From assembly GCF_030384885.1 (NCBI RefSeq), contig NZ_CP128613.1: 64,000 bases of DNA; one strand, written 5' to 3'. Position 1 is the stretch's first letter. Every line of letters starts with the position of its first letter. This DNA is from Escherichia coli (GTDB lineage Bacteria > Pseudomonadota > Gammaproteobacteria > Enterobacterales > Enterobacteriaceae). A program made the translations under genes and the position numbers. Shown here piece after piece: positions 40,291 to 64,000 of the stretch. A model generated the notes under the pieces. That model saw only the letters and a list, made by a program, of their open reading frames with translations. It was not told the origin of the DNA and made no database searches.

Positions 40291-40725
40291 CAGTGTTTCT
40301 CCTTTCGCCCGCCAGAGTAAAAAGCAACCGTTTACGTTATTGAAACTGTCTAAACATATGCTCGTGGAGTGCCAGTTTTTGCGAGGAAGGGGAGTTAGAG
40401 ACAGGAATTGCGGAGGCAATCACATAATCGTGGTTAAACCATGAAAATGAGAAGAGAACCTGACAATGGAATTATCTGTAATTTTCTCATATTGATATTT
40501 CATTAATCATTCTGGCATGTCGCACTCTCGCATTTAATCGTTTTTATCTGGATAGCGCTCTTTTGGTCGGCAATGTTGAAATAATGAAAGCGGCACAGAT
40601 TGAGGGGCAATAATTTGAACTCAGTCGCAAAATTATAATTAAAACGGTCATGCTACCTAATATATGCCCGTTTATTGCATCGCGAAATTTGAGAAGACAT
40701 AACTCATTAAATGAAAGGGATGCAA

Positions 40726-42645: not shown

Positions 42646-43133
42646 TGAAATCGTTAATTATCGTTAATCCGGCTGATTGTATTGGCTGCCGTACTTGTGA
42701 AGTAGCCTGTGTGGTCGCTCACCTTTCAGAACAGGAGTTGAATGCCGATGTCTTTTTGCCTCGGCTGAAGGTACAGCGACTGGACAGCATCAGTGCGCCG
42801 GTGATGTGCCATCAGTGTGAAAACGCCCCTTGTGTCGGCGCTTGCCCCGTGCAGGCGCTGACGATGGGCGAGCAGGTGGTGCAGGCAAATTCTGCCCGTT
42901 GTATTGGCTGTCAGAGTTGCGTCAGTGCGTGTCCGTTTGGGATGATCACCATTCAGTCGTTGCCGGGGGATACCCGGCAACAAATTGTGAAATGCGATCT
43001 CTGTGAACAGCGGGAAGAGGGGTCTGCCTGCGTTGAATCTTGCCCGACACAGGCGCTGCAGTTGCTTACTGAAAGAGAACTCAGGCGAGTCCGCCAGCAG
43101 CGTATTGTTGCCAGCGGTGAGAATCCTCTCTGA
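42642..43133 (+). CDS. ygfS: 4Fe-4S ferredoxin-type protein YgfS (162-163 aa)
   Basis: Multiple Cys4 ferredoxin motifs ([24 protein letters not shown]); ATGA overlap with ygfT. Confidence 0.87.
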
Positions 43134-47470: not shown

Positions 47471-50341
47471 TTATATTTTTTCCAGCGCGGTGAGTATTTT
47501 CTCCGGTGTGAAATGCCATTCGCGTAACCAGATGCCGCAGGCATCGTGAATTGCGGTAGCAATCGCCGGAGCTGCGCCATTTACACCGATTTCTGAGATT
47601 GATTTCGCCCCGAATGGGCCGACTTTATCGTCGCTCGGCACCAGCACAGCGCGGAAATCACGCGGAATGTCACCAATTTTCGGTGCGCCGTAACTGCGTA
47701 AATCACGCGTTAACGGGTGGCCTTCGGCGTCATAAATGATTTCTTCGCTCATACTGTGCCCGATAGCACGCAGGGTGGCTCCGTAGATTTGTCCCAACGC
47801 TAACTCTGGATTGACCGGTGTACCACAGTCCAGCAAGGCATAGAATTTATCCAGGCGGATTTCACCCGTACGTGTGTTGACGGCAACTTCAGCAAAGTTT
47901 GCGCCATACGGGAAGGCGAAATCAGGCGTGATATAACTGGCAGTTCCCACCAGTGAACCAAAACCGGTGCCGGTTTCGCCTTTATGGGCAATATCCCCGA
48001 AACTAACTTCGCCTTTCTTGCCGCGCACGACGCCCGGCGTTGCCAGTTGAACATCCTCCAGGGGTTCCCCCAGCATTTGTGCACCGTGGAACAGGATTTT
48101 CTCTCGGAGGTTTTCTGCCGCCATACGCGCCGCGTTGCCGGAGAAACATGTACCGGACGAGGCATATGCGCCTTTATCAAACAGCGCATGATCGGTATCA
48201 CCGGAGATAACATGCACGTCCTGCGGTGGGCAGTGCAGCACTTCTGCTGCCAGTTTCGTCACCACGGTATCCAGACCAGTACCAATATCCGCACCGCCAG
48301 AATGAACGATAAAGGTACCGTCTGATTCCAGTTTGATCATGCAGTTAGCCTGATCGATATCCGGGATCCCTGATTTCTGCATGATAATGGCGACGCCACG
48401 ACCGATGTGCCAGTCACCGTTTTGTGGTTTTGGTGAAGACCATTGGATCATCTCGCGACCCTGACGCAGGATCTCTTCCAGTGCGCAGCTGGCGGCGGAA
48501 GGAACGGAGGTCGGCGCTTTACCTTCACCGATTGCACCGAGAATTTTCAGCTCTTGCCCTTCGTGTACCCGGTTACGTTCGATAATTTCCAGTTGGTCGA
48601 TCTGTAACTGTTCAGCCAGTTCCGCTAATGCCATGGTGATAGCGAAGTTACCTTTCGGTGCGCCATAACCCTGATAAGCACCATTTGGGCAAATGTTGCT
48701 GTAGTAGGTGGTGACCTGGAAATCGACGTTATCGCACGGATATAACGGCAGCGACAGCGCCGGTCCGTTACACGGTACGGTGAGTGAGTGGTTGCCGTAA
48801 GGGCCTGTGTTGGCGCGGAAATCCATCTTCACAGCCGTCAGGCGACCATCTTTCTTTGCCCCCAGTTTGACGGTGACTTTCGCGACGTGACGGGAGGTGT
48901 TAGCAATAAACTCTTCTTCACGGGTGTAGCGGAACAGTACCGGACGCCCGGTCACGCAGGTTGCCCAAGCGCACACTTCTTCCAGCAGGATGTCCTGTTT
49001 AGACCCAAAACCGCCGCCAACTCGCTCTTTAATGACATGAACTTTATGTTGTTTCATGCCCACGAGGCGCGCGACCTGGCGGCGTAAGTGCCATGGTACC
49101 TGGGTGGAGGCGTGGATAACCAGACGATCGCCGTCCATACGGGTAAAGCAGATATGAGTTTCAGTCGGGCACTGCTGCGCCTGAGTTGAGTTATAGGTTC
49201 GCTCAATGATCACATCGGCATCGGCAAAGCCTTTATCCATATCGCCAATATGACCATGAATACTGGCGGCGATATTTTTACGAGGGCGAGAACCGATAGG
49301 GAAGTTGATAATCATATGCTCGCCGCGCTGGGCTGCATGGCTGTTATCGTCTTCCAGAGTGTCTGGCGCACCCGCCACATACACCACCGGTTCATCGTGT
49401 ACGACAGGCGCATCTTCCGCCATTGCTTCGTCGATCGACATTACAGGTTTAAGCACTTCATATTCAACGTCGATGAGCTTCAGTGCTTCGAGCGCAATTT
49501 CTTCACTTTCTGCGACGACCGCAGCAACGCGATCGCCGACGTGACGCATTTTCTTGCCGAACATACGGCGGTCAAGCGGTGACGGTTCCGGTGCGCTCTG
49601 ACCACCCGGGGTATAGTAGATATCCGGGCAATTCAGGTGAGTAATAACGTGAACGACGCCCGGTAAGGCTTCAGCTTTGCTGACATCCAGATGAGTAATC
49701 AGTGCGTGAGCGTGTGGGCTACGTAACATTTTAATGACGCAGGCGTCAGCCGTTACGCGGTCTTCAACATAGCAGGGTTTCGCCTGCACCATTTTTGCGG
49801 CATCAGTTTTAGGATAATGCTTACCAATGACTTCAAGGTCATCGCGGAAAGTCGGAGCGATATCAATGGTGGCCTGCGGGTTATTTTTACGTGCAATTGC
49901 CAGTTCAACGACCTGATAGTATTGTTGCCAGCCTGCATCGCGACTGAACAAACCAGAAAGCGCGTCGTCGATCTCTTCGCGGGTCGGTGCGGCGATACGC
50001 TCGAGCAGATCAGTGATAATCAGAGCCGCAGCTGGATCGTTATAACCAGACTGCACCACGCCAACATCAACCATGGCCTGTTGAACCAGACTTAACTCAT
50101 TCCATTTGCCCAGAGATTCTGCGGTACGAATATCTGCCTTCTCTAACTGTGCGGCAATAAGCAAGGACGCGTTAACGATATTACCGTTAAAGATTATTGC
50201 GTCAGAACCGGCAAACCCGAAGCCATCATCACTGTTGCGTACAGAGTGCATTCCCATGTTAAACAACAGCTTTTGCACGTTTTCGCCTGGATTAACGGTT
50301 AGCTCCTGAGGCGCGCCATTTAAAGTAAAGTGGATGATCAT
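47471..50341 (-). CDS. xdhD: Molybdopterin-binding xanthine-dehydrogenase-family hydroxylase XdhD (956 aa)
   Basis: N-terminal 2Fe-2S-like region plus aldehyde-oxidase/xanthine-dehydrogenase Mo-binding domains; ATGA overlap with ygfM. Confidence 0.9.
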   Translation of the reverse strand: MIIHFTLNGAPQELTVNPGENVQKLLFNMGMHSVRNSDDGFGFAGSDAIIFNGNIVNASLLIAAQLEKADIRTAESLGKWNELSLVQQAMVDVGVVQSGYNDPAAALIITDLLERIAAPTREEIDDALSGLFSRDAGWQQYYQVVELAIARKNNPQATIDIAPTFRDDLEVIGKHYPKTDAAKMVQAKPCYVEDRVTADACVIKMLRSPHAHALITHLDVSKAEALPGVVHVITHLNCPDIYYTPGGQSAPEPSPLDRRMFGKKMRHVGDRVAAVVAESEEIALEALKLIDVEYEVLKPVMSIDEAMAEDAPVVHDEPVVYVAGAPDTLEDDNSHAAQRGEHMIINFPIGSRPRKNIAASIHGHIGDMDKGFADADVIIERTYNSTQAQQCPTETHICFTRMDGDRLVIHASTQVPWHLRRQVARLVGMKQHKVHVIKERVGGGFGSKQDILLEEVCAWATCVTGRPVLFRYTREEEFIANTSRHVAKVTVKLGAKKDGRLTAVKMDFRANTGPYGNHSLTVPCNGPALSLPLYPCDNVDFQVTTYYSNICPNGAYQGYGAPKGNFAITMALAELAEQLQIDQLEIIERNRVHEGQELKILGAIGEGKAPTSVPSAASCALEEILRQGREMIQWSSPKPQNGDWHIGRGVAIIMQKSGIPDIDQANCMIKLESDGTFIVHSGGADIGTGLDTVVTKLAAEVLHCPPQDVHVISGDTDHALFDKGAYASSGTCFSGNAARMAAENLREKILFHGAQMLGEPLEDVQLATPGVVRGKKGEVSFGDIAHKGETGTGFGSLVGTASYITPDFAFPYGANFAEVAVNTRTGEIRLDKFYALLDCGTPVNPELALGQIYGATLRAIGHSMSEEIIYDAEGHPLTRDLRSYGAPKIGDIPRDFRAVLVPSDDKVGPFGAKSISEIGVNGAAPAIATAIHDACGIWLREWHFTPEKILTALEKI

Positions 50342-51117
50342 ACGGCTTCCTCCCCAGCCTGTTGGCAGTCGGCATAAAGGTCGGCTACCAGAACTCCCGT
50401 GATATAGCGTTTATAGGCCACGCTGCCCCGCAAATCTTCCTGCGGGAAAATGGCGTTGGCGACAGCCTGTTCAAGGGCATCGCCTTCCAGGTTTTGTTTT
50501 TCAACATCGTGCAGACGCAGTGCTTTACTGGCCACGCCATCCAACGCAATTCGCATACCGTCGTGATCGGTTAACGCAACGGCTGCCGTTACTACCGTTA
50601 ACCCAGCCTGAGAACGGCTAATTTTGCGAGTCGCACAGGTGCGATACGGATCTTTAATGATGATTTCGGTTAGCAGGCGATCGCATGGGCAGGCCAGGTA
50701 CTCCTCAATTGACAGAGTTTCACCGTTGCCAAAAACCAGTTCGGCATCCAGTGCCAGCAGGACGGGAAGCAGCACCGACTCTTCCTGCCGGGCGGCGATT
50801 TCACCACCAATGGTCGACTGATTACGAATATGGCGAGAGTAGACAAAGCCGAGAGCCTCACGCAGTGCTGCAGGAATAAACCGTGCATCACGCAGTGTTT
50901 GCAAGCGAGACATCGCGCCAATCCGCAATGCACCGTTATCCCAGTCAACCCAGTCCAGTTCCAGATCCTGTAAGGATATGGCAATCTTTTTATCGGTACG
51001 GGTTGGTGTGGCGTTGAGTTTACTGCCTCCGGCGAACCAGACGGCTTCATCCTGGTAGCGGCGCTTCAGTTCCAGCGCCTGTTCGACAGAGTCGGGCCTG
51101 AAAAATTGTTCAATCAT
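50338..51117 (-). CDS. ygfM: FAD-binding subunit of a molybdo-hydroxylase, YgfM (259 aa)
   Basis: CO-dehydrogenase/XdhB-type FAD-binding domain; operon position. Confidence 0.88.
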   Translation of the reverse strand: MIEQFFRPDSVEQALELKRRYQDEAVWFAGGSKLNATPTRTDKKIAISLQDLELDWVDWDNGALRIGAMSRLQTLRDARFIPAALREALGFVYSRHIRNQSTIGGEIAARQEESVLLPVLLALDAELVFGNGETLSIEEYLACPCDRLLTEIIIKDPYRTCATRKISRSQAGLTVVTAAVALTDHDGMRIALDGVASKALRLHDVEKQNLEGDALEQAVANAIFPQEDLRGSVAYKRYITGVLVADLYADCQQAGEEAV

Positions 51118-51167
51118 CTTCTTTCCTTATTTAACCCTCTTCCCTGCGGGAAGAGGGTATTTGTCAT

Positions 51168-52496
51168 TTATGCCAGCGCATCCATCCGACGCCACATAGC
51201 AGCGGCGGCTTTTTGGGCTTGCGCATAAATGGAATCGCAATCGAAGTTAAACTGACGGTCTTCATAGACCATAACGCCGTTGACCATCACGCTGTGGACG
51301 CTGCCTGAACCCATGCCGAAAGCGATATGTCCAGCGATATTGTCTGCCAGCAGTGGCGTCGGCGAGTTGTAATCGCAAATGGTTAAATCGGCTTTATAAC
51401 CGGTTTCCAGCAGGCCAAATTTCGCGCCAAAGTTGCGGCTCATCAGTTCGTTGCCGTTAGACAGAGCTTTGGCAAAGCTGTCAGGCCACAGCGGACCACC
51501 CGCATCGCGATGTTTAAAGAAGGCAAATTTCATCTCTTCAAACATATCTGAACCAATACCGTCCGTACCCAACGCCAGATTGCGGATGTCGCAAAGATGA
51601 TGGTTGTAGCCGACATGGTTGTTCATGTTTGAACGGGCGTTATGCACCAGGAATGCATCACGCTGATTGAGCAACGCGATGTCGTCTTTAGACAGATAAA
51701 GCCCATGAGCGACCAGCGTTTTGCTGTCGATGAGATCGAATTGCGCTAATCGTGCCAGCAGATCTTTGCCGTACCAGTGATGACTATGGGAAACATCGTA
51801 AAGGTCTTCCGCAGCGTGAATATGTAAACCACGGCCTGTGGCTTTCACGGCCTCACGCAGCATTTCCAGACCGGCATCCGGCACAGTAAACGGCGCGTGA
51901 GCACCAATATGAGCTTCTACCAGATACGGTTCAGTTGCCGCTTTCTTCGCATCATCAATCTGACGGGCGAAGCGGATATTTTCCTCTACTCCTTCCTGTA
52001 GTTCTTTAATGCCGTTGTTACGGTCAGTGGTTTCAAAACAGGTCATCGCACGCAAGCCAACTTTTAAAAATGCGTTGCGCAATGTGGAGAGCGACCCGCT
52101 GATATACGCCGGAGAGGCATGGTGATCGATAACAGATGTACAGCCGCTCTTAATCGCTTCCAGTGAACAAATCAGCCCGCTGTAATAGAGCGACTCTTCA
52201 TCAAGGGCGCGATCGAGCCGCCACCAGAGATTTTTCAGCGTTGAAATGAAATCCGGGCAGGGGGCGATGTTTGCCATAATTCCACGGGAAAGCCCCGAGT
52301 AAAAATGGTTGTGCGAGCAGACAATTCCCGGCATCACAATCCGACCATGCATCTCTTTGTAGTTGGCATCGGGGTAGCGTTGCGTCAGCGCATCGCCGAT
52401 AGCGACAATCACATCATTTTCGATGGCGATATCAACGCCTTCCTGCACTTTCGCCGGGTGTAACTGCACTGCGGTGACATTCTTCAGAATCAACAT
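51168..52496 (-). CDS. ssnA: Putative aminohydrolase SsnA (chlorohydrolase/cytosine-deaminase-like, 442 aa)
   Basis: Amidohydrolase metal-binding motif (GIVCSHNHFYS...) and fold. Confidence 0.88.
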   Translation of the reverse strand: MLILKNVTAVQLHPAKVQEGVDIAIENDVIVAIGDALTQRYPDANYKEMHGRIVMPGIVCSHNHFYSGLSRGIMANIAPCPDFISTLKNLWWRLDRALDEESLYYSGLICSLEAIKSGCTSVIDHHASPAYISGSLSTLRNAFLKVGLRAMTCFETTDRNNGIKELQEGVEENIRFARQIDDAKKAATEPYLVEAHIGAHAPFTVPDAGLEMLREAVKATGRGLHIHAAEDLYDVSHSHHWYGKDLLARLAQFDLIDSKTLVAHGLYLSKDDIALLNQRDAFLVHNARSNMNNHVGYNHHLCDIRNLALGTDGIGSDMFEEMKFAFFKHRDAGGPLWPDSFAKALSNGNELMSRNFGAKFGLLETGYKADLTICDYNSPTPLLADNIAGHIAFGMGSGSVHSVMVNGVMVYEDRQFNFDCDSIYAQAQKAAAAMWRRMDALA

Positions 52497-52498
52497 GA

Positions 52499-55400
52499 TT
52501 ACACCTCCACGCGGCCCAGCAGATAATGATGATGCTGGTGGACATGGCTAATGATGCGGCACATATCGTTCAGCTCCGGTGGTACGTTGTTGAACTGACC
52601 TTCGCTGTCGATGTTTAACACCCAGCTTTGGTTATTCAGACGTATGCGTACCTGGCAATCTTCCACAAGGAAGCCTGGGTTGCTGCTGTTATCAAAGTCT
52701 TGCGACAGGCTGAATACGGTGATTTTGTCTTTATATGGTTTACCGTTCCACGGGCAGAACTGGGCGCAGTTGCCGCATTCGTTACAGTAAGCGTCGAGGT
52801 GCAGCGTCTGGAAACGGTTCTGGAATCCAGGGACCGCAATTGAGACATTGGCGCGGTTAGGGCAGACATCCACACACTTGCTGCAAACGTAGTTACATTC
52901 AAGACAGCGAGAAGCTTCCTGAGCGACAAACGCATCACGATCGTCGCTGTTCACCAGGGTGACTGAGATATCGCCTTTACGTTGGTAGATTTCCGCCGGA
53001 TTGACGTTGTTCCAGTATTTATCGTTCTGGTGGGAACGGATATTTTCCCGACTAAGGATGGCATCGGTCGCCCGACGCGCGGTTCCGACAGCAGCGACAA
53101 TGGAGGATGGTCCGCGCTGTACGTCGCCGATCATAAAGACGTCAGTCAGACGAGTTTCGCCATTATGGTCGACGTCTGGCCAGCCGTTTTTGTCCAGCGG
53201 CACGCCCATCGCATTCAGGGCTTCAGTATCCTGCTGTTCACCAATGGCGGTGATCAGGCTGTCTACATGCAGTGTTACTGTTTCGTTGGTTTCAACCGGA
53301 CGGCGACGACCTTTCTCATCAGGTTCGCCAAGCGACATAACGCGCAAGGTTAAGGTGCCATCAGCATCGAAACGTTCCGGATTATTCAGGAAACGGAACT
53401 CCACGCCGTCGTGCAACGCTTCTTCATACTCTTCGCGCCATGCTGGCATCTCTTGCAGTGAACGACGGTAAACGACCGTTGCTTTTTCTACGCCTGGAAC
53501 GCGTAACGCCGCACGAGCGCAGTCCATTGCGGTGTTACCCGCCCCGACAACGACCACATGTTTGCCCAGCTTGAGCGCTGTGCCCTTGTTGTATTCACGC
53601 AGGAAGGGGAGTGATTTCCAGACATTTTGGTTGTCGCCCGCCAGTTTCACACCGCTATTTTTATCAGTGCCGGTGGCAATCAGAACATAGTGGAAGCCCT
53701 GATTTTTTAACTGTTCAACGGTCAGATCGGGTGAGCAGCCATACTCAAATTTCACGCCGTGAGCGGCAACAAAATCGATATCGTGCTGAATTAACTCTGC
53801 AGGAATACGGAACTGAGGAATGATATTTTTCACCACGCCGCCCGCATTGGCTTCGCGTTCAAACAGCGTAACCGGATGGCCCGCTCTGGCAAGGAAGTAA
53901 CCTGCTGCCAGACCCGCCGGACCTGCACCAATCACGGCAACTGGATGGCGTGAACCAGAACCGGCTGGTTTGTGCCAGCGTTGCTTATATTCATCCCAAC
54001 CTTTTTCCAGCGCGACTTTTTTCAGTTCGCGGATATTCAGCGCACTGTCGTAATCCAGGCGGGTACAGTTGTATTGGCACTGGTGATCGCAAATATGACC
54101 GGTAATGGCGGGCAGGGCGTTGCGTTGGTAGATGAGTTCCAGTGCGTCGGCATAGCGGTGTTCGCCAAGCAGACGTATGTATTCCGGAATATCCTGTTTA
54201 ATGGCGCAAGCAGTAACGCACGGTGCAACGTAGCAGTCGGTCAGCGGCAGGTCTTCTGCCACTTCAATACGCTCTTCTGGCTTCCAGTGTTTCTGAGTGT
54301 ATTCCATGGTTAACGCGTCTGCTGCCAGTTTGTTCAGTCGTTCGACGTCAACATGGTCAAGCCCCCAGGCGTCGGAGCCTTCCAGCTCGCGCATGCAGGC
54401 ACTTAAGCGCAGATAGCCGCCAGGTTTCAGCAGGTCGGTTGCCATAGTAATAGGGCGAATACCAGTATCAAAAATATCGCGGATAGTCAGCTGACTGGCA
54501 CCACCGGAATAAGAAATGGGCAGTTTGCCGTCAAAGGCGCGAGAGAGAACTGCTGCAACATTGATGGAGAGCGGGAACAGCGCACGGCCTGACATATACA
54601 TCTCTTCACCAGGCAGTGCGCCTTTATTGTTGATGGTGCCGAGAGTGTTAGTCAGTTTTACGCCAAAGCCGAGTGATTTTTCTTTTGCCAGTACCATCAG
54701 GCGTTCCAGCATTTCCAGCGCTTGCGTCAGCTTGAGGTCGTGATCAAATGACTCTTCTTTTAAGCCTATGTAACCGAAACCGCAGACATCGAGGATCTCA
54801 CGAACACGCGCGTACCCCAGTAAGGTCGGGTTGAGTTTCACAAAGGTATTGAGCCCTTTTTCTTCCAGCATGTAGCGGCAAATGGCTTCGATTTCATGCG
54901 GAGGACAGCCGTGCATCGTGGAGAGGGTAACGCCTTGTACCATGCTGGTGGGGATGCGTGCCGGTAAGGCCTGCAAGCATTCGCGTTTTTCCTGTAAGCC
55001 GTGGCGGGCTAAAAATGCGTCATCCTGGAGTAATTCATTCAGCGTATCGCGATATTGAGCGAATTTCGGATGGTCAGATGCGTCCATCATATTGTCGATG
55101 AACTGTTGCATCGGCGGTTGCTTAATACCTTCGAGGTTGTAACCGACGCTCATATTAAAGATGAACGATTTACCGGAATCAGAAGGCTGGAACATCGCTT
55201 CGAGAAGGTGCAGGGCAAACCAGGCTTTGAGGTATTCATCCCAGGCTTTAAGCAGGGTAAATTCGGTGGACCATTCGGTGTTAAAGCACTCGTCTTCGGC
55301 ATCAATACAGGGCTTTTCCAGCTCCAGGCGGTCAAGAATTTGGACGGTTTTTAGTTCGATGAAGCGTCCGCCAGTCAGCCAGGATGTGACAATATTTTGC

Positions 55401-55597
55401 GCGAGCTGCGTGTGCGGACCAGCGGCAGGGCCGACGGGAGTGGCACAGGTTTCACCGAAGACGCTAATAGTTTTACCTTTTACGGGTGAGTAAAACTGTT
55501 GCTCGGGAATACCAAAGATTGAGCGTTGTTGTTGGTATTCATCAAATATGCGCGTCAAAAGTTCCTCAAACGGAATGGGACGCATAATATCCCCCAT
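52499..55597 (-). CDS. ygfK: Large Fe-S/flavin oxidoreductase YgfK (GltD-like plus dihydropyrimidine-dehydrogenase-like and ferredoxin domains; putative selenate-reductase-associated, 1032 aa)
   Basis: 1032-aa ORF with pyridine-nucleotide disulfide-oxidoreductase GxGxxG motifs ([14 protein letters not shown]) and C-terminal Cys clusters. Confidence 0.88.
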   Translation of the reverse strand: MGDIMRPIPFEELLTRIFDEYQQQRSIFGIPEQQFYSPVKGKTISVFGETCATPVGPAAGPHTQLAQNIVTSWLTGGRFIELKTVQILDRLELEKPCIDAEDECFNTEWSTEFTLLKAWDEYLKAWFALHLLEAMFQPSDSGKSFIFNMSVGYNLEGIKQPPMQQFIDNMMDASDHPKFAQYRDTLNELLQDDAFLARHGLQEKRECLQALPARIPTSMVQGVTLSTMHGCPPHEIEAICRYMLEEKGLNTFVKLNPTLLGYARVREILDVCGFGYIGLKEESFDHDLKLTQALEMLERLMVLAKEKSLGFGVKLTNTLGTINNKGALPGEEMYMSGRALFPLSINVAAVLSRAFDGKLPISYSGGASQLTIRDIFDTGIRPITMATDLLKPGGYLRLSACMRELEGSDAWGLDHVDVERLNKLAADALTMEYTQKHWKPEERIEVAEDLPLTDCYVAPCVTACAIKQDIPEYIRLLGEHRYADALELIYQRNALPAITGHICDHQCQYNCTRLDYDSALNIRELKKVALEKGWDEYKQRWHKPAGSGSRHPVAVIGAGPAGLAAGYFLARAGHPVTLFEREANAGGVVKNIIPQFRIPAELIQHDIDFVAAHGVKFEYGCSPDLTVEQLKNQGFHYVLIATGTDKNSGVKLAGDNQNVWKSLPFLREYNKGTALKLGKHVVVVGAGNTAMDCARAALRVPGVEKATVVYRRSLQEMPAWREEYEEALHDGVEFRFLNNPERFDADGTLTLRVMSLGEPDEKGRRRPVETNETVTLHVDSLITAIGEQQDTEALNAMGVPLDKNGWPDVDHNGETRLTDVFMIGDVQRGPSSIVAAVGTARRATDAILSRENIRSHQNDKYWNNVNPAEIYQRKGDISVTLVNSDDRDAFVAQEASRCLECNYVCSKCVDVCPNRANVSIAVPGFQNRFQTLHLDAYCNECGNCAQFCPWNGKPYKDKITVFSLSQDFDNSSNPGFLVEDCQVRIRLNNQSWVLNIDSEGQFNNVPPELNDMCRIISHVHQHHHYLLGRVEV

Positions 55598-55918
55598 AAC
55601 CCTCTCCTTAGCTTATACAGATATCATTGAATGACCGGTGTTGAGAAATCCGGTGGTTTACGGGGATAGAGCAACAATCGCACCACTCTTGCCAGGTTTA
55701 GTGGGAAATATAAAAAAATGTGAGGCGGCTCGAAACTTAAGGGCTTTTTGTGAATGAACTCACAGGTGCCAAATGAGAATTAAAATCACTCCTGAAAATT
55801 ATTATTACCAGCCCATTTATCACTTTTTCTCTTTTCTCAAAATCAGTGATTCCTTATCATAATGATAAAGAAGGCTGGATGGTTTAAATATTTGAACGCA
55901 AACGTTTAACTACGTTTT

Positions 55919-56497
55919 CTAAATTTCAGTATACCTTTTTTGCGCTGTAATAAAGTCGTCCGGAGTATCAATATCTAAAATTATTTCTGCATTTTCTATT
56001 TCGACGGAATAATGTTCTCCCATAAGGAGTGCCTGACGCATATTGGTGACATTGGGTCGCTGGGTTGCCTGCATCAGGCATGGCTTTGACACTAAAATCG
56101 GATGGCCGGGGATACCTTTATGGAGTGGCAGTATTGAGCCATCATTACGTAACGACCAGATTTTTCTAAAAATATCGATGGTGAGGGTTGGCATGTCACC
56201 GTGGGTGAGAAAACAATGTTCGGTTTGCACCGCGGGTACTGCGGCCTTTACTGATGTCAGTAAACCCTGCGCATAATTTGGGTTGTGGATAATAGTGATA
56301 TTACTCTGGTTCGCATAACGTTCGTGCAGTTCATTACCACGATAGCCGGTGACTAAAATAATTCGGCTACAAAACTGCAACGCATTTTTGATACTTGCAT
56401 CAAGAATTGTTCCCTCTTGCCAGGGTAACATCATTTTCCATTGCCCCATTCTTGATGATAATCCGGCAGCGGTAATTATACAGTCGATGGCTGACAT
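55919..56497 (-). CDS. mocA: Molybdenum cofactor cytidylyltransferase MocA (YgfJ, 192 aa)
   Basis: MobA-like nucleotidyltransferase N-terminus (AIDCIITAAGLSSRMG). Confidence 0.88.
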   Translation of the reverse strand: MSAIDCIITAAGLSSRMGQWKMMLPWQEGTILDASIKNALQFCSRIILVTGYRGNELHERYANQSNITIIHNPNYAQGLLTSVKAAVPAVQTEHCFLTHGDMPTLTIDIFRKIWSLRNDGSILPLHKGIPGHPILVSKPCLMQATQRPNVTNMRQALLMGEHYSVEIENAEIILDIDTPDDFITAQKRYTEI

Positions 56498-56599
56498 AGT
56501 GGTTCCATTATTTATAGGGGCTAATAACGCCTGATAATTGCGTTACTTCCTGATGGATTAAGTTGGGGATAATTTATCCCAGAGAGGTCATAAAGACTC

Positions 56600-57370
56600 G
56601 TGAAAAGTATAGTTGACCCATCGGCATTATTCATTGATTTAGGCGCGCAGAAACGTCCCACTGTGATTTCTGTTGTTGGGGCTGGGGGGAAAACCAGCTT
56701 GCTTTTTTGGCTGGCAGAACTGCTCCAGGCTAGCGGCAGGCGAGTGTTAATCACTACGACGACACATATGTTTATGCCAACGTCTCACTGGCCCGTGGTT
56801 TTCTGTCGTGATCCCGCCATGCTTCCTCATGCGTCTCTTACATCCCCCATTTCATTTTGTTTTCACAGCTGGAAAGCGAACCAGGGAAAAGTGCAGGGAT
56901 TTATGCCAGAAGCGATTGATGCACTGGTGCAACGACCAGAGTGTGACGTAATTCTCATTGAGGCAGATGGCTCGCGTGGAATGCCGTTAAAAGCGCCTGA
57001 TGAGCACGAACCTTGCATACCCAAAAGCAGTTGCTGCGTGATTGCTGTGATGGGAGGACATATTTTGGGTGCGAAAGTGAGCACAGAAAATGTCCATCGC
57101 TGGTCGCAGTTTGCTGATATTACCGGGTTAACACCTGATGCAACCTTGCAACTGAGCGATCTCGTTGCGCTGGTTCGCCACCCTCAGGGCGCATTTAAAA
57201 ACGTACCGCAAGGTTGTCGGCGAGTCTGGTTCATTAACCGTTTTTCTCAATGTGAGAATGCGATTGCGCAAAGCGAGCTCCTTCAACCGCTGCAACAACA
57301 CGACGTAGAGGCAATCTGGCTGGGCGATATACAAGAACATCCTGCAATCGCGCGCAGATTTGTGAATTAG
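56600..57370 (+). CDS. yqeC: YqeC, marker protein of selenium-dependent molybdenum hydroxylase loci (256 aa)
   Basis: P-loop-like VVGAGGKTS; pairs with yqeB. Confidence 0.85.
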   Translation: MKSIVDPSALFIDLGAQKRPTVISVVGAGGKTSLLFWLAELLQASGRRVLITTTTHMFMPTSHWPVVFCRDPAMLPHASLTSPISFCFHSWKANQGKVQGFMPEAIDALVQRPECDVILIEADGSRGMPLKAPDEHEPCIPKSSCCVIAVMGGHILGAKVSTENVHRWSQFADITGLTPDATLQLSDLVALVRHPQGAFKNVPQGCRRVWFINRFSQCENAIAQSELLQPLQQHDVEAIWLGDIQEHPAIARRFVN

Positions 57371-57417
57371 CGGCCCGGGTATTCCGGGTTACTGAAAGGA
57401 TATCCATTGAGGTTGGT

Positions 57418-59042
57418 ATGAATATTTTCACAGAGGCTGCAAAACTTGAAGAGCAAAATTGTCCGTTTGCGATGGCGCAAATTGTTGATAGCCGAGGCTC
57501 GACTCCCCGCCATTCTGCACAAATGTTAGTGCGCGCCGATGGTTCTATCGTCGGTACAATTGGTGGTGGAATGGTTGAGCGGAAGGTGATTGAAGAGTCG
57601 CTTCAGGCATGCAGGAACGTAAGCCGCGATTATTCCATGGACGTATGGCTCGTAACGGTGTGGATGCTGTCGGGTCAGATTGTGGAGGTGCAATGTCCGT
57701 GTTTATCAGCGTCCATGGTATGCGTCCTCGTCTGGTGTTGATTGGCGCGGGGCATGTCAATCGGGCGATAGCCCAGAGTGCGGCGCTATTAGGATTTGAT
57801 ATTGCCGTTGCCGATATTTATCGCGAAAGCCTTAATCCTGAATTATTCCCATCATCAACCACGCTTCTCCATGCTGAGTCGTTTGGTGCGGCAGTGGAAG
57901 CACTGGATATTCGCCCTGATAATTTTGTCCTGATTGCCACGAATAATCAGGATCGTGAAGCCCTCGACAAACTCATTGAACAGCCCATTGCATGGCTGGG
58001 GTTGCTGGCAAGTCGCCGCAAGGTTCAGCTTTTCCTACGTCAATTGCGTGAGAAAGGCGTGGCTGAAGAACATATTGCCCGTTTACATGCGCCCGTTGGT
58101 TACAACATAGGTGCGGAAACGCCGCAGGAGATCGCCATCAGCGTGCTGGCAGAAATATTACAGGTGAAAAATAACGCGCCGGGTGGGCTGATGATGAAAC
58201 CTTCTCATCCTTCCGGACACCAGCTGGTGGTGATTCGCGGTGCGGGGGATATCGCCAGTGGTGTGGCGCTACGTCTGTATCATGCGGGTTTTAAAGTGAT
58301 CATGCTGGAAGTGGAAAAACCGACAGTGATTCGTTGTACCGTGGCGTTTGCCCAGGCCGTGTTCGATGGCGAAATGACGGTCGAAGGCGTCACTGCCCGC
58401 CTGGCAACCAGCTCTGCGGAAGCGATGAAACTTACCGAACGCGGATTCATCCCTGTGATGGTAGATCCCGCCTGTTCATTGCTTGATGAACTGAAACCGC
58501 TTTGCGTGGTGGACGCTATTCTGGCGAAACAGAATTTGGGTACGCGGGCAGATATGGCACCAGTAACAATCGCGCTTGGGCCGGGCTTTACTGCTGGGAA
58601 GGATTGCCATGCGGTAATTGAAACAAATCGCGGGCACTGGCTCGGTCAGGTGATTTACTCTGGTTGTGCGCAGGAGAATACCGGTGTTCCCGGCAATATT
58701 ATGGGGCATACCACCCGACGGGTGATCCGTGCTCCTGCTGCAGGCATTATGCGATCCAACGTGAAATTAGGCGATCTGGTGAAAGAGGGCGATGTGATTG
58801 CCTGGATTGGTGAGCATGAAATTAAAGCACCGTTGACGGGGATGGTGCGTGGCTTGTTGAACGACGGACTGGCGGTGGTCGGTGGTTTTAAAATTGGTGA
58901 TATCGATCCACGTGGTGAAACGGCTGATTTCACCAGCGTTTCTGATAAAGCCCGGGCAATTGGCGGCGGCGTACTTGAGGCGTTAATGATGTTGATGCAT
59001 CAGGGCGTTAAAGCGACAAAAGAAGTGCTGGAAGTGGCTTAA
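57418..59042 (+). pseudogene. yqeB: XdhC-family molybdo-hydroxylase maturation protein YqeB, reading frame interrupted in this sequence (N-terminal 107-aa ORF and 477-aa ORF in different frames)
   Basis: XdhC N-domain (MNIFTEAAKLEEQNCPFAMAQIVDSRGSTPRHSAQMLVRADGSIVGTIGGGMVERKVIEESLQA) is in frame 1 and stops at 57741; the rest (RKPRLFHGRMARNGVDAVGSDCGGAMSVF..., Rossmann LVLIGAGHV...) is in frame 0, open from 57594. The span is 1625 nt, one short of the 1626 nt needed for a single 541-aa reading frame. Confidence 0.55.
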
Positions 59043-59047
59043 ATGAA

Positions 59048-59080
59048 AATGGCCGGATGGTATTACCCACCCGGCCTTTA
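59048..59080. terminator. Hairpin between convergent yqeB and yqeA (probable bidirectional terminator)
   Basis: GGCCGGATGGTATTACCCACCCGGCC inverted repeat flanked by A/T. Confidence 0.55.
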
Positions 59081-59082
59081 AA

Positions 59083-60015
59083 TTACTGACAAATCACCGT
59101 TCCGGTTTTGCCTTCAATCCCTTCTTTCGCTTTGCTCAATACGGTAATCAGTGCTTCGCGTCCAGCGCGAGAGCGAGCAAACGAGGCGGCTGCTTCCACT
59201 TTAGGCAGCATAGAACCTTTCGCAAAATGACCTTCTTCGATAAAGCGTTCAGCATCACTTAATGACAGGCGATCGAGCCACTGTTCGTTCTCTTTACCGA
59301 AGTTAATGGCCACTTTTTCTACCGCAGTCAGAATGATCAGCATATCGGCATCAATCATTTCTGCTAAACGGGCGCTGGCCCAGTCTTTATCAATAACCGC
59401 GCTGGCACCACGCAGATGGTTACCTTCACGAATAACAGGAATACCACCACCGCCAACGGTGATCACTACCTGGCCTGCATCTACCAGAGCTTTAACCGTT
59501 TCTTTTTCAATGATATCAACCGGTTTTGGCGAGGCAACAACACGGCGATAGCCGCGACCAGCATCTTCTTTCAGAGTGTAACCCTGTTTTGTCAGTTGCT
59601 CGGCTTCCTGCTCGGTAAAGAACGAACCGATCGGCTTGGTCGGGTTGAGGAATGCCGGATCGTTAGCGTCGACTTCGACCTGGGTAACCAGCGTTGCTAC
59701 AGGTTTATTAATGCCACGAGAAAGCAGTTCTTCTCTTAAGGCGTTTTGTAGATCGTAACCAATATAACCCTGGCTTAAGGCAACACAGACAGACATCGGC
59801 AGCATTGGCGAGTGCGCTTCAGTTTTTGCCGCGGCTTCAAAGGCCTGGTTAATCATGCCTACCTGCGGCCCGTTACCATGAGTGACGATGACCTCATGTC
59901 CCTGGGCAATTAAATCAACAATTGCCTGAGACGTAATTTTTACCGCTTTCATTTGTCCGGCTAGATCGTCGCCCAGCGCATTCCCGCCCAGGGCGAGAAC
60001 AATTTTCTTACTCAT
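59083..60015 (-). CDS. yqeA: Carbamate kinase-like protein YqeA (310 aa)
   Basis: Amino-acid kinase family, ArcC-like N-terminus (MSKKIVLALGGNALG). Confidence 0.9.
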   Translation of the reverse strand: MSKKIVLALGGNALGDDLAGQMKAVKITSQAIVDLIAQGHEVIVTHGNGPQVGMINQAFEAAAKTEAHSPMLPMSVCVALSQGYIGYDLQNALREELLSRGINKPVATLVTQVEVDANDPAFLNPTKPIGSFFTEQEAEQLTKQGYTLKEDAGRGYRRVVASPKPVDIIEKETVKALVDAGQVVITVGGGGIPVIREGNHLRGASAVIDKDWASARLAEMIDADMLIILTAVEKVAINFGKENEQWLDRLSLSDAERFIEEGHFAKGSMLPKVEAAASFARSRAGREALITVLSKAKEGIEGKTGTVICQ

Positions 60016-60062
60016 TTTTCCTCACTCATCATTCTTGATTGTGTATAGATCCCTGGCAGTGG

Positions 60063-61448
60063 TTAGAGCACGGGAGGGACAAACGGTTTGCGTCGCAGGA
60101 AACGACCTCGCCCGGCTTTACCTGTAAAGGTGCCGTCACAGAAAATCGTTTCACCACGGGATAATGTTCTGACAATTGCGCCCTGACAGGTAAAACCCTC
60201 CCAGGGCGAGTAGTCGGCGTTGTCGTGGAGATGGCGGTGTTGAATTTGTTGACTCTGACGTGGGTCGATAATTACCACATCACCATCTGAGCCGGGCGCT
60301 AATAATCCTTTTTGTGGCCACAGGCCAAATAGCCTGGCGGGCATCGCACTGGTCAATTCAACAAAACGCTCCGGTGTGATACGTCCCGTCATCACGCCAC
60401 TGGAGAACAGCAACTGCATGCGGTTTTCCACACCGGGCAAGCCATTTGGGCAGCGGCTGAAATCGCCTTTAGAAATTTGCAGGCGTTGAGCCATCGAGAA
60501 GGTGCAGTGATCGGTCGCCACCACGTCAATCGCACCATCACTAATGCCACACCACAGTTTGTCCTGCTCACGCACGTTACGCAGTGGTGGGCTAAGAATG
60601 AACTTCATGCCGTCTTCTGTATCGTAACTGCGTTCGTCCAGCAGGAGATATTGCGGGCAGGTTTCAACCCAGACTGGCTGGTGATTCGCGCGGGCAAGAC
60701 GCAGATAATCCAGACCTAAGCCGTTAGAGAGGTGGACGATATAGAGCGGGGCGTTACCGGCAATTTGTGCCAGGTTAATCATGCGTGCGATGGCTTCCGC
60801 TTCGCATTCCAGAGGGCGACTCAAGGCGTGATAGCGCGGCGCGGTTAACCCTGCGGCGATAAACTCCGCCCGCTTGCTGGCGATAGCTGCATCATTTTCC
60901 GGGTGCACGGTGGTCAGCGCGCCGGACTCATGCAAGCGGCGTAACGCCTGCAAAACCTCGTCATCGTTGAGTTTGTATTGATAGGTTAAATAGAGTTTAA
61001 AACTGCTCAGTCCTTCTTCGACCATCATCGGAATTTCGTCGAGGATGGCGTGATTAATGTGCTGGATAACACCGTGAAAGCTGTAGTCAATAACCGCTTT
61101 ATGGGCGGCATAACCACGATAAACTTCCAGTTGATGGCGTAATCGGCAGCCATTTGGTCCAAATCCCATATGGTCAATAATGGTTGTTGTACCGCCACAC
61201 GCAGCTGCGCGGGTACCGGTAAAAAAATCATCACAACTGCGCGCGATGCCGACATCAATATTGAAGTGTGTATGGACATCTACGCCGCCAGGGAAAACGT
61301 AACAGCCAGTAGCATCAATTTCTTCATAAGGGAGCTGCGGCGAAATATCGGTGCCCAACTGGCGAACAATCCCGCTTTCAATCAGCAAATCCTGTTTGGC
61401 TTGTCCATCTGCGTTAACGATAGTGCCGTTTTTGATCAATACGCGCAT
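60063..61448 (-). CDS. hyuA: D-phenylhydantoinase / dihydropyrimidinase-like cyclic amidohydrolase HyuA (YgeZ, 461 aa)
   Basis: Begins MRVLIKNGTIVNADGQ; metal-binding GGVDVHTHF motif. Confidence 0.9.
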   Translation of the reverse strand: MRVLIKNGTIVNADGQAKQDLLIESGIVRQLGTDISPQLPYEEIDATGCYVFPGGVDVHTHFNIDVGIARSCDDFFTGTRAAACGGTTTIIDHMGFGPNGCRLRHQLEVYRGYAAHKAVIDYSFHGVIQHINHAILDEIPMMVEEGLSSFKLYLTYQYKLNDDEVLQALRRLHESGALTTVHPENDAAIASKRAEFIAAGLTAPRYHALSRPLECEAEAIARMINLAQIAGNAPLYIVHLSNGLGLDYLRLARANHQPVWVETCPQYLLLDERSYDTEDGMKFILSPPLRNVREQDKLWCGISDGAIDVVATDHCTFSMAQRLQISKGDFSRCPNGLPGVENRMQLLFSSGVMTGRITPERFVELTSAMPARLFGLWPQKGLLAPGSDGDVVIIDPRQSQQIQHRHLHDNADYSPWEGFTCQGAIVRTLSRGETIFCDGTFTGKAGRGRFLRRKPFVPPVL

Positions 61449-61500
61449 AGCAAACTCCAAAAACCCTCCGGCGAACCGGAGGGGAATAAGTTAAGAATAA

Positions 61501-62712
61501 TTATTCGGTTGCCAGCCAGCTTAACGGGATTGCAGCGTACATAGCGGCACAGGTCACCAGGTGAGATTTCCAGGTTTTTTCGTTAGGTGCGTGCGCTTCA
61601 GGTTCTTTACCAGGGCCAAAACCGATCACCGGAATGCCGTGACGACCCATGATGGAGACGCCGTTAGTTGAGAAGGTCCACTTATCAACAACCGGCGCTT
61701 TGCCAAACAGCCCTTCGTAGGCATTCACCAGTGCTTTAACAGTGAAGTGATCTTCTTCCACTTTCCAGGTCGGGAAGTAGCATTCGGTTGGGTAAACCAG
61801 GCCAGTCCAGGACGGACGGTCGTAGTTGTACATAGAAACAACCGCGTTAGCTTTCTGTACCGCAGGCAGGGCGCGGATTTCGTCCAGCGCGCCTTCCCAG
61901 GTTTCGCCCCAGGTCAGACGACGGTCAATTGAAACTGCGCAGCTGTCTGCTACAGCGCAACGGCTTGGAGATGTGAAGAAGATTTCAGAAACGGTGAGGG
62001 TGCCTTTGCCGAGGAATTCGTCATAGCCCAGGCGCTGGGAGAGTTCCTGCAATTCGCCAAGAATCGGACCCATTTTGAAAATGGCGTTATCACCGCGCTC
62101 TGGCGCAGAGCCGTGGCAGCTAACGCCCTGAACATCAATGCGAATTTCCATACGACCGCGTTGACCACGATATACCTGGCAGTCGGTTGGTTCGGTACTG
62201 ACCACAAATTCCGGGCGAATGCCAGATTGTTCAATAATGTACTGCCAGCACAGACCGTCGCAGTCTTCTTCCTGCACAGTGCCGGTGACCAGCAGGGTGT
62301 ATTCATCTTCCAGACCGAGGTCTTTAATGATTTTACCGGCATAAACCATAGATGCCATGCCGCCTTCCTGGTCGGAAGTACCACGGCCGCCGATCAGCTC
62401 ATCAGTTTCCATGCCTTCGTACGGATCGAAGTCCCAGTTTTTGATGTTGCCAATGCCGACGGTGTCGATATGCGCGTCCATCGCCACCAGACGCGGGCCG
62501 TGACCGATATAACCGAGCACGTTGCCCATCGGGTCGATTTCAACTTTATCGAAGCCGACTTTTTCCATCTCTTCTTTAATACGATGTACTACGCGTTTTT
62601 CATCGCAGCTTTCACTGGGAATAGCAACCATATCGCGCAGAAAGCGAGTCATGTCTGCCTGGTAATCTTTTGCTTTTTCAAGAATCAGTTTGAATGGAAT
62701 ATTCTTAGCCAT
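61501..62712 (-). CDS. ygeY: M20-family peptidase / amidohydrolase YgeY (403 aa)
   Basis: ArgE/DapE/CPG2-type metallopeptidase fold and motifs. Confidence 0.88.
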
Positions 62713-62769
62713 TATTTTTCTCCAGATTTTTTACTCCCCGTTTGGCGGGGAGCAGTTCCAATAGGGTGA

Positions 62770-63966
62770 TTAAGGTGCTACAGAGTGTTTGCCTTCCCAG
62801 ACAACTTCGCGGTAGTGCTTCACGTCGGTGTCGCCTTCAGTGCTGATAACCAGCACCACTGCATCTTTGTTCAGCGCCAGTTTTTCCATCAGGCTTTGAC
62901 GTTGCGGGTGATAATGAACCGCCGCGAGAACGCCTAAACCGACAGCGCCGGATTCACCGGAGATGATGCGCGGGTCGTTGCCGTACGGATTACCCAGCAC
63001 GCGCATACCTAATGCGGCAACGCTGTCCTGGCAGGAGATGAATTGGGTGGCGCAGTTACGTAGGATTTCCCAGCCCAGTGGGTTAGGTTCGCCGCAAGCC
63101 AGGCCCGCCATGATAGTGGCCATATCGCCGCCAACGTTGACGATGTCGCCTTTGACACCAGAACGATAGATACAGTCAGCTTTGTCAGGTTCAACAATAA
63201 TGCTGTGCAGATTTTGCGGGCTGTAGACGTCGACCAGATAACCCAGTACGCCGCCGGCCATCGCGCCGACACCGGCTTGCAGCAGAACGTGTGTTGGGGT
63301 TACGCCCATTTCACGCATTTGCTCGACGGCTTCATCTGCCAGAGTGGCATAGCCCTGCATGATCCAGGTTGGGATTTTGGTGTAGCCTTCCCAGGCGGTA
63401 TCTTGCACCACTTCCCAGCCGTGTTGCTGCGCGTGTTGCATGGTCAGACGAACGGTATCGTCATAGTTCATATCAGTGACGATGCACTCGGCTCCGAGGT
63501 TCAGAATGGCGTCAACGCGTTCCTGAGCGGAACCTTTCGGCATGTAAATTACCGCGTTCTGACCGAGTTGCTGTGCTGCCCAGGCAACACCGCGCCCGTG
63601 GTTGCCGTCGGTCGTTGTAGCAAATGTCATTTTTTCGCCGATGGCACTTTTCAGATGCTCGAATGACAGTGTTTCGATATCAAGATGATATTTTTCGCAC
63701 AACAACTGAGCGATGGCATATGCGCCGCCGAGCATTTTGAATGCGTTCAGACCGAATCGTTTTGATTCGTCCTTAACGAGAATTTTTTTCACCCCAAAAA
63801 GGTTTGCGAGATCGTCCAGCGCGCAAAGTGGTGTTGGGCGATAGCCAGCAATTTTCTGGTGGAACTGGCGCGCCAGTTTTGCCTGGCTTTGCGAAAAGAG
63901 CGGTGATGTTTCGCCGTTGAAAAATTTGTTATCGGCGATATCAATCTTCAATGAGAAAACGGACAT
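62770..63966 (-). CDS. ygeX: 2,3-diaminopropionate ammonia-lyase (PLP-dependent, 398 aa)
   Basis: PLP fold-type II sequence; begins MSVFSLKIDIADNKFFNGETSPLFSQSQAKLARQFHQKIAGYRPTPL. Confidence 0.9.
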   Translation of the reverse strand: MSVFSLKIDIADNKFFNGETSPLFSQSQAKLARQFHQKIAGYRPTPLCALDDLANLFGVKKILVKDESKRFGLNAFKMLGGAYAIAQLLCEKYHLDIETLSFEHLKSAIGEKMTFATTTDGNHGRGVAWAAQQLGQNAVIYMPKGSAQERVDAILNLGAECIVTDMNYDDTVRLTMQHAQQHGWEVVQDTAWEGYTKIPTWIMQGYATLADEAVEQMREMGVTPTHVLLQAGVGAMAGGVLGYLVDVYSPQNLHSIIVEPDKADCIYRSGVKGDIVNVGGDMATIMAGLACGEPNPLGWEILRNCATQFISCQDSVAALGMRVLGNPYGNDPRIISGESGAVGLGVLAAVHYHPQRQSLMEKLALNKDAVVLVISTEGDTDVKHYREVVWEGKHSVAP

Positions 63967-64000
63967 ATCCTATCCTTTTGGCCTCTGGAAATAGAGAGCC

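Follow-up and report, generated by a model that had tools for sequence, protein, structure and literature searches.

The xdhD-ygeX region of an Escherichia coli genome as the central part of the reductive uric acid degradation locus, with a one-base frameshift in yqeB

The reductive degradation of uric acid was worked out in two 2025 studies, in which each catalytic step was assigned by means of purified proteins, for the most part those of Escherichia coli MG1655 (Li et al., PMC12507026; Liu et al., bioRxiv 10.1101/2025.04.24.650524). They arrived at the same route independently and added support from mutants and isotope tracing. A commentary of the same year (PMC12990295) treats the pathway as elucidated and lists as still unsettled the ureido group concerned in the YgeW step, the stereochemistry, the clostridial electron donor, and the kinetics. 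In clostridia, the first enzyme requires SelD, as reported for Clostridium sporogenes (bioRxiv 10.1101/2025.04.24.650524), and yqeB is required for urate-dependent growth of Clostridioides difficile (PMC11448449), where it is needed on both urate and xanthine while yqeC is without phenotype. Removal of urate by gut bacteria bears on hyperuricemia, gout, and engineered probiotics, a significance that has already been published. Here, we analyze a stretch of 64,000 nucleotides (nt) of an E. coli genome (contig NZ_CP128613.1 of assembly GCF_030384885.1; "the window"), in which xdhD, ygfM, ssnA, ygfK, mocA, yqeC, yqeB, yqeA, hyuA, ygeY, and ygeX all lie within positions 47471 to 63966. This part of the window is very likely the central portion of the E. 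coli reductive uric acid (2,8-dioxopurine, or "yanthine") degradation locus, which is already known and biochemically solved and the catalytic steps of which are settled.

An original prediction, made from the sequence alone, had guessed at an anaerobic route on which a urate-like purine is ring-opened and ATP is finally made by way of carbamoyl phosphate, and had tied the locus to anaerobic urate degradation in gut bacteria. The guessed route matches the two 2025 reconstitutions, and the tie to urate degradation was right as well. Its gene identities and pathway logic stand, whereas its statement that most steps lack an assigned substrate and that enzyme assignments are open is outdated. The deletion experiment that it proposed has been done before; MG1655 deletion phenotypes are published (bioRxiv 10.1101/2022.07.24.501321).

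Gene identity is supported from several sides. The open reading frame (ORF) list, the RefSeq annotation of the same eleven ORFs in the near-identical sequence NZ_CP027579.1, and the NCBIfam matches agree on the predicted genes, their order, and their orientation. With the exception of yqeB, all proteins (10 of 11) match specific NCBIfam models over their full length and above the curated cutoffs, and these ten intact proteins are equal in length to their K-12 MG1655 counterparts, at 94.8 to 100% identity. Markers of a reductive uric acid cluster are present, namely, an XdhD-type hydroxylase beside YgfK, the HyuA-YgeY-YgeX set, and the SsnA-family amidohydrolase (IPR017700/TIGR03314) that served Li et al. 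as marker gene. Nothing in the sequence contradicts the urate degradation pathway. Of 5426 complete RefSeq E. coli genomes, 5148 carry 80% or more of the stretch, nearly always at 95 to 99% identity, and the nearest genome, that of strain 2013C-4282 (NZ_CP027579.1), differs by four substitutions and two single-base indels across the window. Apart from a private one-base frameshift in yqeB, the locus is a highly conserved, ordinary E. coli gene cluster.

On the basis of their identity to the K-12 enzymes, we infer that the proteins of this strain would act as follows. Urate, imported by UacT or derived from xanthine by XdhABC, would be dehydroxylated at C6 by XdhD-YgfM with NADH, yielding 2,8-dioxopurine, the pyrimidine ring of which would then be reduced by YgfK with NAD(P)H. 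Hydrolysis of the reduced ring by SsnA would give mainly ureidomethyl-hydantoin, to be opened by HyuA to 2,3-diureidopropionate. Phosphorolysis of one ureido group by YgeW would release carbamoyl phosphate, from which YqeA would make ATP, while the other ureido group would be hydrolyzed by YgeY to leave 2,3-diaminopropionate, the presumed substrate for conversion by YgeX to pyruvate and ammonia. MocA would supply the cytosine-dinucleotide form of the molybdenum cofactor (Moco), with YqeB and YqeC as likely accessory factors for a selenium-modified cofactor, and transcription would start from sigma-54 promoters under YgeV, with additional catabolite control. Beyond what is transferred from K-12, we infer a chaperone role of YqeB, nucleotide binding by YqeC, and the use of a cyclic AMP receptor protein (CRP) site.

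Several points weigh against this assignment. The ATP-yielding step is only half encoded within the window: the carbamate kinase gene yqeA is present, but the window stops short of its partner ygeW. The two 2025 studies differ on the product of YgeW, which is either 2-amino-3-ureidopropionate (albizziin) or 3-amino-2-ureidopropionate. Furthermore, it is the C. sporogenes enzyme for which selenium dependence has been demonstrated, and C. difficile in which yqeB is required; neither result concerns E. coli XdhD, and selenium is not discussed in the E. coli paper. Finally, the yqeB frameshift could deprive XdhD and XdhA of mature cofactor in this strain.

For the first step, XdhD and YgfM together have the makeup of the xanthine oxidase family, i.e., [2Fe-2S] domains, a molybdopterin domain, and a flavin adenine dinucleotide (FAD) subunit. 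In XdhD, which is 99.3% identical to its K-12 counterpart, the [2Fe-2S] part at about residues 3 to 148 precedes the molybdopterin-binding part; residues 3 to 148 match XdhC/PucE-type Fe-S subunits, and residues 351 to 955 match XdhA-type Mo subunits. The nearest solved relatives are 4-hydroxybenzoyl-coenzyme A reductase, aldehyde oxidoreductase, and xanthine dehydrogenase, all of the xanthine oxidase family; for XdhD and YgfK themselves, no solved structures were found. Residue 606 of XdhD, which Li et al. proposed to orient urate, is Glu in the window (PMC12507026). The ygfM stop and the xdhD start share 4 nt, and YgfM copurifies with XdhD (PMC12507026). The K-12 XdhD-YgfM complex reduces urate to 2,8-dioxopurine with NADH (PMC12507026). 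None of the eleven ORFs, xdhD included, contains an in-frame TGA, and hence none encodes selenocysteine.

Alternatively, XdhD might be an additional xanthine/hypoxanthine dehydrogenase that acts oxidatively, in which case hyuA, ygeY, and ygeX would belong to a hydantoin or diaminopropionate metabolism unconnected with it. In favor of this are the name that XdhD bears in K-12, "fused putative xanthine/hypoxanthine oxidase," and its strong similarity to XdhA-type models, yet the scores stay below the cutoffs (520 versus 780 bits). Also, the activities first described for HyuA and YgeX were those of a D-phenylhydantoinase and a diaminopropionate ammonia-lyase, respectively. However, a ΔxdhD mutant still consumes xanthine, accumulates urate, and forms no 2,8-dioxopurine, whereas a ΔxdhA mutant does not consume xanthine (PMC12507026). 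Labeled diaminopropionate derived from urate builds up in ygeX mutants (bioRxiv 10.1101/2025.04.24.650524), and the genes are coregulated as one iModulon. The oxidative role is therefore refuted by the cited mutant data, and we attach next to no probability to it.

The genes ygfK, ssnA, ygfM, and xdhD form one four-gene operon, which holds both the Mo hydroxylase and the ring reductase. Pfam covers only residues 453 to 950 of YgfK (Fer4_20, Pyr_redox_2, and a ferredoxin-type motif). Residues 1 to 450 have no Pfam match, and a sequence search of the Protein Data Bank (PDB) with phmmer gave only chance-level matches. We modeled this region with AlphaFold2 (AF2) from an alignment of 74 homologues (1441 representative clusters were collected), which gave a predicted local distance difference test score (pLDDT) of 94.7 and a predicted template modeling (TM) score of 0.93. 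The top Foldseek matches of the model are the flavin mononucleotide (FMN) barrel of pig dihydropyrimidine dehydrogenase (DPD) and dihydroorotate dehydrogenase (DHODH), with a probability of 1.00 and E values of about 1e-9 to 1e-10. The TM scores are 0.47 to 0.50 when normalized to the query and 0.55 to 0.67 when normalized to DHODH, at 12 to 17% sequence identity. The N-terminal domain thus models as a DPD/DHODH-type FMN barrel, and FMN binding is predicted. The resulting domain order of YgfK is an FMN-type TIM barrel (residues 1 to about 440), Fer4_20 (453 to 532), the FAD/NAD(P) domain Pyr_redox_2 (552 to 839), and a C-terminal 2x[4Fe-4S] motif (about 897 to 950). In other words, the order in DPD (N-terminal Fe-S, FAD, NADPH, FMN barrel, C-terminal Fe-S) is not kept, since in YgfK the barrel comes first. 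By its predicted structure, YgfK would be a permuted relative of DPD, and the match of the barrel supports the published view that it works like DPD. Among the 74 aligned homologues, the stretch S226-T-M-H229-G-C231-P is invariant or nearly so; it is similar to the S-C-P loop in the active sites of DPD and class 1 DHODH, and by analogy Cys231 is a candidate proton donor.

According to an older reading, YgfK, YgfM, and XdhD form a selenate reductase. A 2002 genetic study by Bebien et al. in Microbiology reportedly linked mutants in ygfK, ygfM, and ygfN to a loss of selenate reduction, and the RefSeq/NCBIfam name of YgfK is still "putative selenate reductase subunit YgfK." In contrast, purified YgfK needs NADPH, is selective in reducing 2,8-dioxopurine, and neither requires selenate nor is stimulated by it (bioRxiv 10.1101/2025.04.24.650524). 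Likewise, the conversion of urate to 2,8-dioxopurine is the work of XdhD-YgfM, and in a coupled assay YgfK and SsnA with NAD(P)H turn 2,8-dioxopurine into mainly ureidomethyl-hydantoin (PMC12507026). A substrate domain that is predicted to be a pyrimidine-reductase-type FMN barrel also argues against selenate as the substrate. We therefore regard the selenate reductase as largely refuted already and as highly improbable, and retain YgfK as the 2,8-dioxopurine reductase. The RefSeq names of ygfK, hyuA, and ygeY are still pre-2025 guesses; the latter two read "D-phenylhydantoinase" and "selenium metabolism-linked hydrolase," such that database product names lag behind the biochemistry.

In the downstream module, HyuA, YgeY, and YgeX all exceed the NCBIfam cutoffs, and YqeA and YgeY are each 100% identical to their K-12 counterparts. 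The HyuA assay of Li et al. was run with the C. difficile orthologue (PMC12507026), while the reconstitution by Liu et al. employed the E. coli enzyme (bioRxiv 10.1101/2025.04.24.650524). YgeW with phosphate, followed by YgeY and YgeX, converts 2,3-diureidopropionate to pyruvate, and a coupled YgeY-YgeX assay has been reported as well (PMC12507026). ATP is formed by YgeW together with YqeA (bioRxiv 10.1101/2025.04.24.650524). The window had been predicted to hold a complete route, but ygeW, the source of carbamoyl phosphate, lies past position 64000: ygeX is the first gene of its operon inside the window, and in NZ_CP027579.1 ygeW is adjacent upstream, with ygeW, ygeV, and xdhABC directly following the position that corresponds to the window end.

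Cofactor maturation is represented by mocA, yqeC, and yqeB, while selD is located outside the window. MocA shares 94.8% identity with K-12 MocA. YqeC carries a Walker A motif, GAGGKTS, at residues 27 to 33 and a hydrophobic-D-G stretch, both read from its translation, and is probably a nucleotide-binding protein. For YqeB, Pfam finds XdhC_CoxI (residues 12 to 74) and the XdhC Rossmann domain (106 to 247) in the intact allele, and the N-terminal half resembles solved XdhC-family proteins. Its C-terminal 287 residues (58179 to 59039) form an EF2563-type domain, which most other bacteria have as a stand-alone protein of about 270 to 290 amino acids, whereas in E. coli it is joined to the XdhC-like module. 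The domain was modeled with confidence (pLDDT, 91.9), but no PDB entry matches it over its whole length (TM, 0.2 to 0.27). Some 65 to 70 of its residues match biotinyl/lipoyl-type barrel-sandwich domains at 1.3 to 1.8 Å, a match from which no mechanism follows but which is in keeping with the resemblance to AccB described by Johnstone and Self (PMC11448449). By analogy with XdhC, YqeB most likely binds the cofactor and presents it for selenium transfer before insertion.

The original prediction had named the yqeB/yqeC pair and missed that yqeB is split. One nucleotide, a T, is deleted at 57611 (CATGC instead of CATTGC), the reading frame is lost beyond codon 64, and a stop follows at 57741. 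Since XdhC_CoxI spans residues 12 to 74, the break falls inside this domain. The fragments are 57418 to 57741 (107 amino acids) and 57609 to 59042 (477 amino acids), the latter starting at an ATG that arises from the deletion itself and is followed by 476 native residues; NCBIfam matches the two halves separately. Of the marker pair for selenium-dependent hydroxylases, only yqeC is therefore intact in this sequence, while yqeB is whole in every other complete E. coli genome compared. We considered a restart at the new ATG, but it is poorly supported because no Shine-Dalgarno sequence precedes it.

The deletion may be a real private mutation or a sequencing or assembly error, and this sequence may thus carry a broken maturation factor. 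If it does, loss of yqeB might block maturation of the selenium-molybdenum cofactor of XdhD, and perhaps of XdhA, leaving a locus that is as described above but nonfunctional or weakened in this strain. The position of the deletion within XdhC_CoxI, the missing ribosome-binding site at the downstream ATG, and the requirement for yqeB in urate-dependent growth of C. difficile are consistent with such a defect, as are truncated yqeB products from further E. coli assemblies such as P0153, P0162, and P0168. However, a 60-mer spanning the deletion is absent from all complete E. coli genomes, and an exact search of 15 billion proteins retrieved neither of the two fragments. The deletion is also one of just two indels that separate the 64 kb from the nearest genome, the other being in a homopolymer, which makes an assembly error equally plausible. 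That other indel is an additional C at 13212, in an intergenic C-run. Furthermore, the need for yqeB was shown in C. difficile, not in E. coli, and a restart product could retain activity because the EF2563 domain stands alone in many taxa. Weighing these points, we consider a weakened locus possible but doubtful, and it is somewhat more doubtful still, indeed rather unlikely, that the frameshift is real and the strain a natural E. coli yqeB mutant. If true, the strain would offer a ready-made test of the YqeB-dependent selenium cofactor need of E. coli XdhD and XdhA, and of whether the XdhC-like N-terminal module is dispensable, as the stand-alone occurrence of the EF2563 domain in most other bacteria allows.

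With respect to regulation, the assignment to urate degradation is in line with the YgeV/sigma-54 regulon. The activator gene ygeV lies outside the window, while -24/-12 elements are present at ygfK, within yqeC, and at ygfT (Table 1). The ygfK element ends 72 nt upstream of the ygfK ATG, and the site within yqeC, IS34, was validated in K-12 by mutation, quantitative reverse transcription-PCR, and Western blotting (PMC4591121). Only literature-mapped sigma-54 sites were kept; a generic consensus scan was uninformative, with 39 matches versus 44 expected. The YgeV iModulon lists the pathway genes, including ygfT and uacT, and does not contain mocA, yqeC, yqeB, or yqeA.

Upstream of the ygfK promoter lies a perfect CRP-type palindrome, TGTGA-N6-TCACA, the sole perfect match in the window (0.04 expected), and identical in K-12. 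Li et al. reported repression by glucose and placed a Crp site between ygeV and ygeW (PMC12507026), and we found no published description of a CRP-type site upstream of ygfK in the literature. Judged by its sequence, the palindrome is a candidate CRP site for the reported glucose repression. Conceivably, CRP might act directly at the ygfK sigma-54 promoter through this site, an arrangement that would be uncommon and that we consider the lesser possibility. A second palindrome, TTATCATTATGATAA, is found at 55854 to 55868, also upstream of ygfK. When the gap between mocA and ygfK was searched for inverted repeats, none passed the thresholds of the tool. A sigma-70 promoter scan stayed at the level of shuffled sequence (16 found versus 16.4 expected). 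A terminator scan was slightly above it (27 versus 20.7; standard deviation, 4.4), the hairpins in intergenic gaps alone being noteworthy, and an Rfam scan of 38000 to 64000 detected neither riboswitches nor other RNA families at gathering thresholds.

Table 1. Features of the window, with functions as assigned to the K-12 counterparts or predicted
Feature	Position	Strand	Description
uacT	38842-40290	-	NCS2 permease; RefSeq name from NZ_CP027579.1
ygfT sigma-54 site	40663-40679	+	Unchanged copy of K-12 chromatin immunoprecipitation sequencing (ChIP-seq) site (PMC4591121)
ygfT	40726-42645	+	Associated gene upstream of main stretch
ygfS	42645-43133	+	Associated gene upstream of main stretch
ghxQ	43169-44536	-	RefSeq name from NZ_CP027579.1; 100% identical to K-12 GhxQ
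guaD	44572-45888	-	Guanine deaminase; associated gene upstream of main stretch
xanQ	45906-47306	-	NCS2 permease; RefSeq name from NZ_CP027579.1
xdhD	47471-50341	-	Mo/Fe-S subunit, urate 6-dehydroxylase (2,8-dioxopurine dehydrogenase); TIGR03313, 2118 bits (cutoff, 1101.9)
ygfM	50338-51117	-	FAD-binding subunit; TIGR03312, 486 bits (cutoff, 241.5)
ssnA	51168-52496	-	Amidohydrolase cleaving the pyrimidine ring of reduced 2,8-dioxopurine; TIGR03314, 737 bits (cutoff, 455.5), full length
ygfK	52499-55597	-	NAD(P)H:2,8-dioxopurine oxidoreductase; TIGR03315, 1780 bits
Sigma-54 -24/-12 element of ygfK-ssnA-ygfM-xdhD operon	55670-55686	-	GTGGTGCGATTGTTGCT; identical to ChIP-seq site OS31 (PMC4591121)
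CRP-type palindrome	55749-55764		TGTGAATGAACTCACA; perfect TGTGA-N6-TCACA, about 63 bp upstream of ygfK -24 element
mocA	55919-56497	-	Molybdenum cofactor cytidylyltransferase, molybdopterin cytosine dinucleotide (MCD) form of Moco that serves Mo hydroxylases of this family; TIGR03310, 212.8 bits (cutoff, 186.45)
yqeC	56600-57370	+	P-loop protein, selenium-cofactor trait marker; TIGR03172, 239.8 bits; Pfam PF19842
Intragenic sigma-54 promoter in yqeC	57001-57017	+	Drives yqeB; identical to site IS34 (PMC4591121)
yqeB (disrupted)	57418-59042	+	XdhC-like Moco chaperone module fused to EF2563-type domain
Terminator-like hairpin	59051-59076		GC-rich, between convergent yqeB and yqeA; 10-bp stem, 8 GC pairs, T-run
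yqeA (arcC)	59083-60015	-	Carbamate kinase, ATP from YgeW-released carbamoyl phosphate; TIGR00746, 385.6 bits (cutoff, 358.25)
hyuA	60063-61448	-	Hydantoinase, ureidomethyl-hydantoin (and 5-ureido-dihydrouracil) to 2,3-diureidopropionate; TIGR02033, 673 bits
ygeY	61501-62712	-	M20-family hydrolase, last ureido group off to give 2,3-diaminopropionate; TIGR03526, 721.6 bits
ygeX (dpaL)	62770-63966	-	Pyridoxal phosphate (PLP)-dependent 2,3-diaminopropionate ammonia-lyase, to pyruvate and ammonia; TIGR03528, 650.7 bits (cutoff, 532.25)

The functional unit extends beyond the eleven genes, reaching upstream to uacT. The neighboring purine transporters that had been predicted are indeed there, uacT and xanQ as NCS2 permeases and ghxQ by its identity to the K-12 gene. 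Elsewhere in the window, a pair of 126-bp inverted repeats, 98.4% identical, occupies the pgk-fbaA and argP-rpiA gaps (617 to 742 and 12369 to 12494); their size is consistent with an enterobacterial repetitive intergenic consensus/intergenic repeat unit (ERIC/IRU)-type repeat, for which they are a candidate only.

Given that the pathway itself is solved, our small additions are the N-terminal FMN-barrel model of YgfK and the sole perfect CRP-type palindrome upstream of its promoter. Three points are left over, namely, the frameshift that is private to yqeB of this sequence, the chemistry of YqeB and YqeC, and a sigma-54 promoter that may receive input from CRP.

Compared with the K-12 MG1655 locus (b2866 to b2888), the window has the same genes, order, orientation, and sigma-54 sites, encodes nearly identical proteins, and is identical at 306 of 321 positions in the region upstream of ygfK. 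It differs in its frameshifted yqeB, in being cut before ygeW, and in lacking a 180-bp insert that K-12 has between yqeA and yqeB. As a consequence of the latter, the yqeB-yqeA gap (59043 to 59082) measures 40 bp here versus 220 bp in K-12, where the insert contains repetitive extragenic palindrome (REP)-like sequence and is flanked by a duplicated terminator hairpin.

The uricolytic clusters of C. sporogenes and C. difficile (XdhAC/DOPDH, YgfK or UacX, SsnA, HyuA, YgeW or UacY, YgeY, and YgeX) share the chemistry and core families with the E. coli locus, and it is there that the SelD dependence of the first enzyme and the yqeB requirement were demonstrated. Unlike XdhD-YgfM, however, the clostridial first enzyme is without the FAD subunit YgfM and makes no use of NAD(P)H. 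In C. difficile, moreover, a PydA-like UacX takes the place of YgfK, and the hydrolase UacY takes that of YgeW/YqeA, with the result that ATP is not gained.

The central steps also parallel reductive pyrimidine degradation (PydA/DPD, PydB, and beta-ureidopropionase), with flavin-dependent ring reduction, opening by an amidohydrolase, and ureido hydrolysis. YgfK has the Fe-S, FAD/NADPH, and FMN-barrel modules of DPD, and HyuA matches the dihydropyrimidinase equivalog. In contrast, the substrate of the urate locus is a purine that is first dehydroxylated by a Mo enzyme, and the FMN barrel of YgfK is N-terminal instead of following the NADPH domain, with a sequence so distant that Pfam and phmmer do not see it. 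The energy-yielding end of the route differs from the arginine deiminase pathway (ornithine carbamoyltransferase and carbamate kinase) in its carbamoyl donor, 2,3-diureidopropionate, and in its transferase, the "knotted" YgeW encoded outside the window. Yet both share the same principle, in which phosphorolysis of a ureido group gives carbamoyl phosphate and, by substrate-level phosphorylation, ATP.

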